Below are positions 59,145 to 61,284 of a DNA stretch of 64,000 nucleotides, piece by piece. The position numbers and the translations under genes were made by a program. Every line of letters starts with the position of its first letter. Position 1 is the first letter of the stretch. Source of the stretch: Candidatus Aenigmatarchaeota archaeon (GTDB taxonomy: Archaea > Aenigmatarchaeota > Aenigmatarchaeia > CG10238-14 > SpSt-28); contig JAWBNO010000001.1 of the NCBI GenBank assembly GCA_039000725.1, forward strand, positions 323,795 to 387,794. Reading direction: 5' to 3'. The notes beneath the pieces were generated by a model that saw only the letters and a program-made list of their open reading frames with translations, was not told the DNA's origin and did no database searches.

Positions 59145-59772
59145 AATTCTGGCTGATCCCGCCAGAGACCACCACTATCCGGGTCCGACTAAGCCATGCG
59201 AGTCGTGAGGGGTGAGCCCTCGGCGTCCTGCTCCGTAATACGCAGTCAACCTACCCTAGGGAGGGGGATAATCCCGGGAAACTGGGGCTAATACCCCATA
59301 GGTGTAAGGCGCTGGAAGGCCCTTACACCGAAATGGCGCTCGTAGCCGCCCTAGGATGGGACTGCGGGGCATCAGGTTGTTGTCGGGGTAATGGCCCGAC
59401 AAGCCGATAACGCCTACGGGCCATGAGAGTGGGAGCCCGGAGATGGACTCTGAAACATGAGTCCAGGGCCTACGGGTCGCAGCAGGCGCGAAACCTTCGC
59501 AATGGGCTAACGCCCGACGAGGGGACCCGGAGTGCCCGTGCTTTGCACGGGCTGTTGCCCTCTGTAAACGGGAGGGCGAGGAAGGGGTGGGTAAGACGGG
59601 TGCCAGCCACCGCGGTAATACCCGCGCCCCAAGTGGTGGTCACGGTTATTGGGTCTAAAGCGTCCGTAGCCGGCCTAGTAAGTCTCGAGTGAAATCCTGC
59701 AGCAAACTGCAGGGCTTGCTCGAGATACTGCTAGGCTCGGGACCGGGAGAGGGCAGCGGTACGCATGGGGTA

Positions 59773-59880
59773 ATGAATAGTGTGCGTACCTTTGAGCTTA
59801 TGCGATGAAAAGAAATTTTTAATTATCACGAAGCTATAATTTTCACTAGAGATCAGAATCTTAGCACACTATTCACCCTA
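59773..59880 (+). other. 16S insertion/intron 1 (about 108 nt) within ggggta|aggggttaaatcc
   Basis: An AT-rich block splits the conserved GGGGTAGGGGTGAAATCC-type segment. Terminal inverted repeat tgaatagtgtgc / gcacactattca. Confidence 0.7.
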
Positions 59881-59996
59881 AGGGGTTAAATCCTGTAATC
59901 CCATGCGGACCACCAGTGGCGAAGGCGGCTGCCTGGAACGGGTCCGACGGTGAGGGACGAAAGCTAGGGGAGCAAACGGGATTAGATACCCCGGTA

Positions 59997-60095
59997 CATG
60001 AGTTAGGGTATCTTCTGATTTCAAGATGAGGAGTATCTAATCCTTTGAAAAATGATAATGCTCCCCACAGCTAGGACTCTAACTCATGCGGGAAA
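59997..60095 (+). other. 16S insertion/intron 2 (about 99 nt) within gattagataccccggta|gtcctagccgtaaacgatg
   Basis: Splits the universally conserved GGATTAGATACCC-GGTAGTCC block. Terminal inverted repeat catgagttag / ctaactcatg. Confidence 0.75.
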
Positions 60096-60347
60096 GTCCT
60101 AGCCGTAAACGATGCCCGCTTGCTGTCGCACGCTCTTCGGGAGCGTGCGGTGGCGGAGCGTAGGTGTTAAGCGGGCCACCTGGGGAGTACGCCCGCAAGG
60201 GTGAAACTTAAGGGAATTGGCGGGGGAGCACACAAGGGGTGGGACGTGCGGTTCAATTGGACTCAACCCCGAGAACCTTACCAGGGCCGACGGCAGGATG
60301 AAGGTCAGGCTGAAGACCTTACCAGACGAGCCGAGAGGTGGTGCATG

Positions 60348-60573
60348 AGAAGAATAGCCCTAAATCAAAAAAGTTTGTAACAAATGTATGAGATATACAC
60401 TAATAAGTATGAAAAAGGAAAAATGTCATTCCAGTCCAGAAGTGTATCGTAATGGTATAAATATCGAAGTTTGAATAAATACAAAAGTGAGTAATTTAGA
60501 ATTAATTGGGAAAAAATAGACAAGTTTCATTGAAAAATACTTACTCTTTTGAAAAGGGCTATTCTTCTGCAAA
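60348..60573 (+). other. 16S insertion/intron 3 (about 226 nt) within ggtgcatg|gccatcgtcagctcgt
   Basis: Splits the GGTGCATGGCYGTCGTCAGCTCGT block. 13-bp terminal inverted repeat agaagaatagccc / gggctattcttct. I saw no ORF of useful length. Confidence 0.75.
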
Positions 60574-60884
60574 GCCATCGTCAGCTCGTACCGTGAGGCG
60601 TGCCGTTAAGTCGGTTAACGAGCGAGACCCCCGCCCCATGTTGCTACTGCCTTCTCCGGAAGGCAGGCACTCATGGGGGACTGCCCGCGATAAGTGGGAG
60701 GAAGGAGGGGGCGACGGTAGGTCCGTATGCCCCGAAAGCCCTGGGCCACACGCGCGTCACAATGCGCGCTACAAAGGGATGCAACCCCGAAAGGGGAAGC
60801 AAATCCCCTAAAAGCGCGCCCAGTTCGGATCGAGGGCTGCAACTCGCCCTCGTGAAGCCGGAATCCCTAGTAGGCGGACGTCAT

Positions 60885-60975
60885 CATGTTAGTCGGAAGA
60901 GTATGATTTACATGCACCACTACGAATTTTAAAAAATGAGGAAATGTGGGAAATGATCTTCCGGCTAGCATGAAA
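60885..60975 (+). other. 16S insertion/intron 4 (about 90 nt) in the hairpin between ctagtaggcggacg and cgttcgccgaatacgtccc
   Basis: AT-rich block with the terminal inverted repeat catgttagtcggaaga / tcttccggctagcatg. The boundaries are the least certain of the six. Confidence 0.6.
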
Positions 60976-61088
60976 GCGTTCGCCGAATACGTCCCTGCTC
61001 CTTGCACACACCGCCCGTCAAGCCAACCGAGTGGAGCTCCCTCGAGGCCGAAAGGTCGAGTGGGAGCTCCGCGAGGGGGGCTAAGTCG

Positions 61089-61147
61089 CCACGGGCGGCC
61101 AGACGAGTTAAAAGCTCGAATGATGATCTTTAATGTCTGGCTACCGG
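61089..61147 (+). other. 16S insertion/intron 5 (about 59 nt) within aagtcg|cgacaaggtagccgta
   Basis: Splits the AAGTCGTAACAAGGTA block. Inverted repeats gtcgcc/ggcgac and gccagac/gtctggc. Confidence 0.65.
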
Positions 61148-61163
61148 CGACAAGGTAGCCGTA

Positions 61164-61250
61164 AGGGTTAGCAGAGAGTTAGATGAAAAAATGGCTTGAC
61201 TCTGATTAATGATGAGTAAGGAGGTGATTAAATCTCTGCTAACTCGGCAA
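61164..61250 (+). other. 16S insertion/intron 6 (about 87 nt) in the 5' strand of helix 45
   Basis: Removing it restores ccgtact-ggaa-ggtgcgg (the helix 45 stem with a GGAA loop). Terminal inverted repeat gttagcagaga / tctctgctaac. Confidence 0.7.
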
Positions 61251-61284
61251 CTGGAAGGTGCGGCTGGATCACCTCCTTAATTTT

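Follow-up and report, generated by a model that had tools for sequence, protein, structure and literature searches.

Six bulge-helix-bulge introns in the 16S rRNA gene of a Candidatus Aenigmatarchaeota archaeon and their putative box C/D guide modules

The DNA analysed here (the window) is a 64,000-nucleotide stretch of contig JAWBNO010000001.1 from a hot-spring archaeon of the Candidatus Aenigmatarchaeota, and it contains near its end a 16S rRNA gene interrupted by six insertions, numbered introns 1 to 6 from the 5' side. Analysis of the sequence confirms the six as short enzyme-spliced introns of the bulge-helix-bulge (BHB) type. At least introns 2, 4 and 6, and weakly intron 1, look like carriers of box C/D guide modules aimed at the 16S rRNA of their own host transcript. 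Intron 6 looks like a double-guide box C/D small RNA (sRNA), with predicted targets at A1408 (E. coli numbering is used throughout) and in the anti-Shine-Dalgarno region. We consider it very probable that the gene is a functional, intron-rich 16S gene of a thermophilic member of this DPANN phylum, with BHB introns and with box C/D modules in introns 2, 4 and 6. A previous sequence-only reading of the same DNA had recognised the gene and its insertions. The introns are more than inert hairpins, and the guide-RNA-like modules aimed at the host rRNA had escaped that reading.

The 16S rRNA gene and its mature product

A covariance-model search with Rfam matched the archaeal small-subunit (SSU) model RF01959 to positions 59146-61132 (1252.8 bits). 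The 3' end given by the model was rejected, since its last 42 positions were forced onto insertion sequence and intron 5 was absorbed; the final ~150 nt are misplaced because two insertions are located there. The true 3' end, GGAUCACCUCCUUA, lies at 61279, and the gene limits and archaeal ends of the sequence-only reading therefore stand. In covariance alignments of sub-regions, intron 1 appears as 109 additional nt after GGGGUA (121 nt vs 12 in the model), intron 2 as 99 nt after GAUUAGAUA (100 nt vs 1), intron 3 as about 226 nt after GCAUG (GGUGCAUG), and intron 4 as 89 nt after GUCAUC (91 nt vs 2). Introns 5 and 6, close to the 3' end, were delimited manually with the help of related sequences. 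Intron 5 lies between AAGUCGCCAC and AAGGUAGCCGUA and intron 6 between GCCGUA and CUGGAAGGUGCGGCUGG, the boundary of the latter having been corrected by hand using two related loci, L014 and L002. The 12-nt micro-exon AAGGUAGCCGUA separates the two, and two BHB motifs are needed inside ~160 nt.

All E. coli positions, including those of the six junctions (Table 1), come from aligning the spliced 16S with rrsH of E. coli K-12. The spliced 16S is 1465 nt long, one nucleotide more than the earlier estimate of ~1464, and shows no large gaps at the junctions in this alignment. Four of the insertion lengths given earlier were right, while those of introns 1 and 4 (108 and 90 nt) were each off by one, so that the earlier description is accurate to within one nucleotide. 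A covariance-model alignment had been proposed as a check on whether the AT-rich blocks fall in variable regions; they lie in universally conserved core strands instead. The exons have 62% GC, the introns 27-53%, and the genome around them ~29%. The gene structure recurs in two independent public assemblies, with exon identities of 99.5% (L020, which carries the same six introns) and 99.8% (L061), and is thus not an assembly artefact.

The 515 region, described earlier as unusual, reads GCCAGCCACCGCGG. It has A at position 524 (59609), paired with U507 (59592), and the U-A pair replaces the near-universal C507-G524 pseudoknot pair in a compensatory double change. A524 is both a mismatch to 515F primers and a lineage marker, the pattern matching mostly Aenigmatarchaeota. 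In the decoding centre, C1498 and C1499 (61089-61090, AAGUCGCCACAAGG) stand in place of the universal U1498 and A1499, and CC at 1498-1499 is common to many related 16S genes. Since A524 is compensated and the CC is shared, these substitutions are lineage signatures and not signs of decay. Intron 2 splits positions 787-806 and intron 5 splits 1492-1510, which bears out the claim that the 806R and 1492R primer sites are broken. These introns, together with the mismatches at 524 and 1498-1499, explain why amplicon surveys with 515F/806R and 1492R miss such organisms.

Bulge-helix-bulge splice sites

The BHB geometry, known from tRNA introns at 37/38, comprises an outer helix, a 4-bp central helix, 3-nt bulges and an inner helix, and each bulge is cut after its second nucleotide. 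When the gene was scanned strictly, with a 4-bp central helix required between two 3-nt bulges on opposite strands, only four candidates emerged whose intron stems were long (12-13 bp), and these are introns 1 to 4. With a slash for the cut, the motifs read GGGG ua/a UGAAUAGUGUGC ... GCACACUAUUCA CCCU aa/g for intron 1, CCCG gu/a CAUGAGUUAGGGU ... ACUCUAACUCAUG CGGG aa/a for intron 2, UGCA ug/a GAAGAAUAGCCCU ... AGGGCUAUUCUUC UGCA aa/g for intron 3 (with a 5-bp outer exon-exon helix), and UCAU ca/u GUUAGUCGGAAGA ... UCUUCCGGCUAGC AUGA aa/g for intron 4 (with an 8-bp outer helix). Intron 5 (CGCC ac/g GGCGGCCAGAC ... GUCUGGCUACC GGCG ac/a) is canonical once a single intron-stem mismatch is allowed, a C.A in an 11-bp stem. 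Intron 6 (GCCG ua/ag GGUUAGCAGAGA ... UCUCUGCUAACU CGGC aa/c) has a relaxed BHB with a 4-nt 5' bulge, and its boundary may be off by 1 nt, while the homologous intron of L014 has a fully canonical motif (GCCG ua/a ... CGGU aa/c). The BHB type assigned in the sequence-only reading is thus upheld by the junction scan, with introns 5 and 6 fitting when it is relaxed.

Cuts placed two nucleotides into the bulges regenerate GGGGUA/GGGGUUAAAUCC, CCCGGU/AGUCC, GCAUG/GCCAUCGUCAGC, GUCAUCA/GCG and AAGUCGCCAC/AAGG, all at consensus length, and removal of intron 6 rebuilds the 10-bp helix 45 together with its GGAA loop (UAGCCGUACU GGAA GGUGCGGCUG). The minimum free energy folds of the junctions contain the intron stems, with z-scores from -2.2 to -5.6 (-3.8 for intron 3 and -5.6 for intron 4). 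No homing-endonuclease open reading frame (ORF) is present in the six introns, as had been claimed; the longest stop-free stretch per intron is 19-53 aa, and with at most 53 aa the introns cannot encode such an enzyme. Rfam returned no group I intron match (at gathering threshold or E <= 10) in 59740-61290, only the SSU match and weak unrelated ones. Given this and their shortness, the introns are not of group I.

Intron load among relatives

The genome scan for relatives used the A524 signature as its pattern, an ascertainment that applies to its results: it recovered 20 genome contigs, 12 of them from metagenome-assembled genomes (MAGs) of Candidatus Aenigmatarchaeota, mostly from hot springs, and most of the others from unclassified archaeal MAGs. 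Insertions number 1-14 in each of 36 related 16S genes and occupy about 25 sites in total. The largest loads are 14 in L073 (13 with canonical BHB), 12 in L024 and 10 in L004. The six introns of the window, considered a very high load in the sequence-only reading, are therefore not exceptional in the phylum. In L073 (12127-14462) the 14 insertions lie within a 2.3-kb gene. In L024 (2111-8018) the 16S gene spans 5.9 kb, and five of its 12 insertions measure 666-899 nt and are possible homing-endonuclease introns.

Sites that are filled in some genomes are empty in others. L014 is empty at five of the six window sites, and intron 3 is confined to the window species (231 nt in L020 and 226 nt in L061). 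At shared sites the bulges and the central helix are constant and the intron stem carries compensatory substitutions, which is seen for the homologues of intron 1 in L002, L013, L027 and L100. At site 1363, among 10 distinct cores, stem positions 1-7 are 90-100% paired, with up to six pair types per position. The six are short hairpin introns that the clade has inherited, with gains and losses at individual sites.

Box C/D-like guide modules

In intron 6, the box and guide elements follow each other in the order C, D' guide, D', C', D guide and D (Table 1). Its segment TGGCTTGAC is complementary to GUCAAGCCA of the 16S, and TAAGGAGGTGAT to the 3'-terminal AUCACCUCCUUA; a complement of this length was equalled in 1 of 500 shuffles. 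The D' guide pairs over 9 bp (positions 2-10) and its predicted 2'-O-methylation site is A1408 (61020), a position at which C/D-guided methylation has previously been predicted for S. acidocaldarius and N. equitans (PMC4644070). In the window clade the D guide forms 12 bp with its target, compared with 8 bp (UCACCUCC) elsewhere. According to the N+5 rule for C/D target choice (PMC6009581), from which A1408 also follows for the D' guide, the predicted target of the D guide is C1535, or C1536 in the register of the window (61272 or 61273).

Modules of the intron-6 type were found at 109 loci (the window, 6 genome-derived and 102 metagenomic). The pattern used for the metagenome scan imposed both guide cores and the D' and C' boxes, and only features outside it count as independent evidence; in the window, the D' and C' boxes are present independently of this search pattern. 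Among 85 distinct copies, the C-box RUGA stands at the exact 12-nt spacing in 77, the D box is UUGA in 72, and the C'-D spacer is 12 nt in 74, none of which was imposed. A terminal stem flanks the module in most of the 85, and in the window this stem is the BHB intron stem itself. A different reading, with C/D spacers of 15-20 nt and CUGC or GUGA as D box, was dropped since the homologues show a C box made of AUGA plus 3 nt, from which the exact 12-nt spacers and the UUGA D box follow.

The hosts of this module are diverse. Among the 109 loci it resides in the 1513/1514 (helix 45) intron at 49, in an intron at 1499/1500 at 21, in an intron at 1491/1492 at 15, and in the 37/38 intron of tRNA-Ser(UGA) at 18, eight of the last being 144-155-nt Rfam tRNA matches that span the module. 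The presence of one module at three 16S sites and in tRNA-Ser would mean that BHB introns, or their cargo, transpose from one BHB context to another without a homing endonuclease. In L046, L051, L072, L079 and L083 the host tRNA-Ser apparently has a second intron, in the D-arm/anticodon-stem region (e.g. ..ccagTTAGGTCTTAAAAACCTAGGTGAAcc..).

In intron 2, the guide forms 11 bp with 16S positions 785-795 (59979-59989), its predicted N+5 target is U788 (59982), and its maximum complement was equalled in 5 of 500 shuffles. The D' box, UUGA in the window, is CUGA in most relatives. The guide of intron 4 forms 10 bp with positions 1048-1057 (60338-60347), its predicted target position is 1051 (60341), and its complement was equalled in 10 of 500 shuffles. 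The half unit of intron 1 forms 8 bp with the exon sequence GGUACGCA (59758-59765), just upstream of the intron. At the site of intron 4 (1363), guide and target covary among relatives through three states, GGUGGUGCAU/AUGCACCAC, GGUAGUGCAU/AUGCACUAC and GGUGGCGCAU/AUGCGCCAC.

Taken over all introns, the motif AUGA-N3-N11..13-YUGA occurs 3 times in 669 intron nt vs 0.114 expected (P = 0.0005). In each of the three units, 8 or more of the 9 guide positions (2-10, counted from the box) are complementary to the mature 16S, a result that none of 2000 shuffles reproduced. The remaining 123 kb, counted over both strands of the window, has 16 motif matches, and just one of them reaches 8/9. The 111 distinct short introns of relatives contain 61 units, of which 53 have a complement of at least 8/9, and in relatives such units occur only at sites 687, 801, 1363/4, 1491, 1499 and 1513. 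Furthermore, three of the six weak non-rRNA Rfam matches in the region are to CD-box small nucleolar RNA (snoRNA) families, on introns 4 and 6.

A free-standing C/D-like sRNA was also observed on a Woesearchaeota contig (L006, ~4770-4825, + strand), ~0.9 kb downstream of the 16S gene. It reads AUGAAUU-GAAUGCACUACU-CUGA-UUUG-AUGAUGA, with canonical boxes, and its guide is the same as that of intron 4 in the window.

Table 1. Positions of the 16S gene, its introns and guide-like elements, and of associated processing features in the window.
Feature	Position	Strand	Remarks
16S rRNA gene	59146..61279	+	Rfam RF01959 (archaeal SSU), 1252.8 bits; exon/intron map and E. coli numbering
Seven exons	59146-59772, 59882-59995, 60095-60347, 60574-60886, 60976-61092, 61152-61163, 61251-61279	+	
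Intron 1	59773..59881	+	109 nt; E. coli 687/688; strict BHB scan
Intron 1, weak C/D-like half unit	59773-59779; 59780-59791; 59792-59795	+	AUGAAUA; 12-nt spacer GUGUGCGUACCU; UUGA
Intron 2	59996..60094	+	99 nt; E. coli 801/802; strict BHB scan
Intron 2, C/D-like unit	60026-60032; 60033-60044; 60045-60048; 60052-60058	+	AUGAGGA; guide GUAUCUAAUCCU; D' UUGA; C'-like AUGAUAA
Intron 3	60348..60573	+	226 nt; 27% GC; E. coli 1057/1058; strict BHB scan
Intron 4	60887..60975	+	89 nt; E. coli 1363/1364, helix 43 loop; strict BHB scan
Intron 4, C/D-like unit	60903-60909; 60910-60921; 60922-60925	+	AUGAUUU; guide ACAUGCACCACU; degenerate D' ACGA
Intron 5	61093..61151	+	59 nt; E. coli 1501/1502; BHB with one mismatch
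Intron 6	61164..61250	+	87 nt; E. coli 1513/1514, 5' strand of helix 45; relaxed BHB
Intron 6, C box	61183-61189	+	AUGAAAA
Intron 6, D' guide	61190-61201	+	AAUGGCUUGACU; 12-nt spacer
Intron 6, D' box	61202-61205	+	CUGA, then loop UUA
Intron 6, C' box	61209-61215	+	AUGAUGA
Intron 6, D guide	61216-61227	+	GUAAGGAGGUGA
Intron 6, degenerate D box	61228-61231	+	UUAA
Predicted target of intron 6 D' guide	61017..61025	+	GUCAAGCCA; E. coli 1405-1413, helix 44 top, decoding centre
Predicted target of intron 6 D guide	61268..61279	+	AUCACCUCCUUA; E. coli 1531-1542, 3' end with anti-Shine-Dalgarno
EndA RNA splicing endonuclease	56306..57538	+	410 aa; Pfam tRNA_int_endo (E 5e-26) and tRNA_int_endo_N
Pre-16S processing stem, 5' strand	59115..59137	+	CAUG ag/a CCUUAGAGGUAGGGUU; predicted cut 59120/59121
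Pre-16S processing stem, 3' strand	61299..61321	+	AACCCUACCUCUAGGG CAUG aa/a; predicted cut 61320/61321
Intron-containing tRNAs	29615-29713; 48205-48306; 52142-52243	+; -; -	

Splicing endonuclease, processing stem and tRNAs

The gene for the RNA splicing endonuclease EndA is located 1.6 kb upstream of the 16S gene. Its product is similar over its full length to PDB 4fz2 (E value 7e-91; residues 41-410 against 25-387 of 395), a chain which we take to be the ARMAN-2 epsilon2 three-unit enzyme of broad substrate specificity. The window EndA is of the three-unit long form and is presumed to cut seven BHB motifs, i.e., those of the six introns and that of the processing stem. In a 2018 survey, the epsilon2 type was reported from Micrarchaeota alone and was tied to broad substrate specificity (PMC5829648). 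The window EndA shares its full-length likeness with the epsilon2 EndA of ARMAN-1, ARMAN-2 and Mancarchaeum, which are Micrarchaeota, whereas the host here belongs to the Aenigmatarchaeota. The location of an epsilon2-type EndA, typed through our identification of 4fz2, beside an intron-rich rRNA gene in this phylum is worth recording.

The two strands that flank the 16S gene together form a canonical BHB with a 16-bp helix. Such a flanking stem is the usual archaeal pre-16S processing stem. Because the stem is a canonical BHB, EndA probably excises the pre-16S as well and circularises it.

Three intron-containing tRNAs of the window were found by Rfam and missed by ARAGORN. In tRNA-Met(CAU) the intron is outside the anticodon loop. 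The introns of tRNA-Arg(UCU) and tRNA-Thr(UGU) contain UGAUGA and CUGA-AUA-AUGAAGA, respectively, as possible kink-turn or kink-loop elements. The tRNAs of the window, three with introns and one of these outside the anticodon loop, fit an EndA of broad specificity.

Proposed mechanism

The proposed pathway would begin with a 2.2-kb pre-16S transcript in which seven BHB motifs fold, i.e., the processing stem and the six introns. During transcription, L7Ae, Nop5 and fibrillarin would load onto the intronic modules, whose guides would pair in cis with strands of helix 24, helix 34, the top of helix 44 and the 3' tail. The guides would then direct 2'-O-methylation (at U788, nt 1051, A1408 and C1535/6), hold these segments open until the introns are removed, or both. 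EndA would cut both bulges of every BHB, and an RtcB-type ligase would join the exons into a normal 1465-nt rRNA and probably circularise the excised introns. After excision, the intron sRNAs may remain as circles with an action in trans, as is the case for circular C/D sRNAs of other archaea (PMC7994747).

We propose that the rRNA introns of Aenigmatarchaeota have been domesticated as cis-acting carriers of C/D guides, in which the guide modifies or chaperones its own rRNA and is released, probably in circular form, by the endonuclease that matures it. To this fuller proposition, as distinct from the presence of the modules, we give about an even chance.

Counter-evidence and alternative explanations

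Several observations weigh against a guide function for the introns. Intron 3 has neither a guide-like unit nor an ORF, and its 16S complement is not above chance; nor is that of intron 5, yet this intron holds a perfect AUGAUGA (61120-61126). The 8-bp complement of intron 1 is not significant when taken alone (238 of 500 shuffles). In intron 2 the antisense blocks cover both strands of helix 24 around the intron's own splice site, and some of them overlap sequences of its own BHB. The D' box of intron 4 is imperfect (ACGA in the window; CUGA or UUGA in relatives), and the second halves (C'/D) of the units in introns 2 and 4 are poorly defined. The C boxes retain the AUGA core only, that of intron 6 being reduced to AUGAAAA, and 2-4 unpaired nt separate the terminal stem from the GA dinucleotides vs the 3-nt bulge of a textbook kink-turn. 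In intron 6 of the window clade, the terminal D box has lost its GA (UUAA or UAAA, 11 of 85 copies) and the C'-D spacer is 13 nt in the homologous register; given both, the D guide may no longer direct methylation here.

Among the window ORFs of at least 120 aa, fibrillarin, Nop5 and L7Ae were not found, and RtcB was not found in the window either (66 ORFs scanned). The three C/D proteins are expected elsewhere in the genome, as in archaea generally. Finally, splicing, ligation, circularisation, ribonucleoprotein (RNP) assembly and methylation are all inferred from sequence.

From these observations arises the alternative that the introns are genuine BHB introns and that their C/D-like boxes only aid splice-site folding or are decayed relics of guides. 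The antisense elements of intron 2, which pair with exon adjoining or overlapping its own BHB, could serve splice-site folding instead of methylation, and the degenerate D or D' boxes of introns 4 and 6, the non-canonical kink-turn geometry and the C/D RNP protein genes missing from the window ORFs all point the same way. However, the intron 6 targets stand apart from its BHB, one 170 nt upstream and the other 40 nt downstream, and when hosted by tRNA-Ser the same module is unable to help any 16S splice site. The 12-nt spacing is exact, and pairing occupies positions 2-10 from the box, the register required for methylation. Moreover, the free-standing copy of the intron 4 guide has canonical boxes, and A1408 agrees with the earlier predictions. 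We therefore regard splice-site aids or relics as an unlikely explanation.

Fragmented rRNAs exist in other organisms, and the blocks might be excised here with the exons left unligated, so that the 16S would consist of up to seven base-paired pieces; the 12-nt exon between introns 5 and 6 could be read in this way. A free 12-nt helix 45 fragment would, however, be hard to retain, several cleavage sites are in single-stranded parts of the decoding centre, and in every archaeal BHB intron studied cleavage is followed by ligation (PMC4496867), which makes a permanently fragmented 16S highly improbable.

It is scarcely credible that the blocks are lineage-specific expansion segments kept in the mature rRNA, even though DPANN and candidate phyla radiation organisms do have unusual rRNAs. 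The blocks interrupt universally conserved strands and not variable regions, every block has a precise BHB, single blocks are missing from close relatives with limits exactly at the predicted cuts, and the GC content of the blocks departs from that of the thermophile rRNA around them (27-53% within 62%). A pseudogene or assembly chimera, to which the substitutions at the normally invariant positions 524, 1498 and 1499 might point, can be dismissed with near certainty, because A524 is compensated by U507, CC at 1498-1499 is found in many relatives, the changes in helix 45 are compensatory, the architecture is identical in two other assemblies, and the spliced exons score as a full-length SSU.

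Other genes in the window

The gene that follows the 16S (61367-63139) encodes a CARDB-domain protein. There is no 23S rRNA in 61280-64000, and the 16S is thus unlinked from the 23S here; in L014 the large-subunit gene follows the SSU gene. A ribosome-biogenesis cluster at 8607-11168 encodes an NMD3-family protein, a RIO1 kinase (9965-10669) and a KRR1/Dim2-like KH protein (10671-11168). Two sets of type IV pilus/archaellum-type ATPases (T2SSE) with paired T2SSF membrane proteins are present at 19958-23518 and 44067-47442, and several ORFs without a Pfam match are located between and after the T2SSE/T2SSF sets (38764-44020).

Relation to known systems and significance

Three elements of this arrangement are established in archaea: rRNA introns of the BHB type, hairpin-only introns, and a C/D guide encoded by an intron of pre-tRNA-Trp. 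The 16S BHB introns of Thermoproteales and Desulfurococcales were surveyed in Pyrobaculum, Thermoproteus and Caldivirga (Jay & Inskeep 2015, PMC4496867), where 13 loci were recorded (374, 548, 722, 781, 803, 901, 908, 919, 978, 1093, 1205, 1213 and 1391) and short hairpin-only introns without an ORF were also present. The introns described here resemble them in the BHB motif, in their insertion into the conserved core and in the disruption of universal primer sites. In contrast, sites 687, 1057, 1363, 1501 and 1513 are absent from that list and only 801/802 comes within 1-2 nt of a listed locus (803); the host belongs to a DPANN phylum, none of the six introns has a homing endonuclease, and several have guide-RNA modules.

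The closest precedent for the modules is the archaeal pre-tRNA-Trp intron, whose C/D sRNA directs the Cm34 and Um39 modifications in the tRNA that hosts it (Clouet d'Orval 2001; Singh 2004; as summarised in PMC7994747). There too a C/D guide resides in a BHB intron, is aimed at the host transcript and is released by the splicing endonuclease, and the intron-6 type of module is likewise found in a tRNA intron, that of tRNA-Ser, on other contigs. In the present case, by contrast, the 16S serves as host, the guides are aimed at rRNA nucleotides and several such introns occur in one gene. Among the gene contexts of archaeal C/D sRNAs given in a 2021 review, i.e., tRNA introns, tRNA-adjacent and intergenic positions, rRNA introns do not figure (PMC7994747).

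Eukaryotic intronic C/D snoRNAs offer a further parallel, since there as well rRNA methylation guides are carried in introns and freed by processing of the host transcript. Here, however, host and target would be the same molecule and release would be by BHB cleavage. Intron 6 also resembles the archaeal double-guide sRNAs that were proposed as rRNA folding chaperones (Dennis et al. 2015, PMC4644070): its two guides address sites ~130 nt apart in sequence but near each other in space, and its D' target, A1408, is the one predicted for N. equitans and S. acidocaldarius. Those sRNAs are free-standing genes acting in trans, whereas the sRNA is inserted here between its two targets.

Our literature search found no description of a multi-intron Aenigmatarchaeota 16S gene, of a box C/D sRNA inside an rRNA intron or of a single guide RNA in alternative intron hosts, an absence that is not proof. 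A 2013 review left as a question whether functional non-coding RNAs arise from archaeal rRNA introns (PMC3608112). There is now sequence-level evidence that they do, in the form of predicted box C/D guides directed toward the host rRNA. Heavy rRNA-intron loads (1-14 per 16S) are extended to a DPANN phylum, with at least 5 sites not listed for Thermoproteales. The occurrence of one conserved guide in four alternative BHB-intron hosts provides a natural experiment on the movement and retention of protein-free introns. With a guide placed between its decoding centre and its anti-Shine-Dalgarno sequence, the small subunit may have a built-in checkpoint, such that neither decoding nor mRNA binding would take place before the intron is removed. 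If true, domestication of these introns would be a direct archaeal parallel to intronic snoRNAs and would supply a selective reason for the persistence of rRNA introns.

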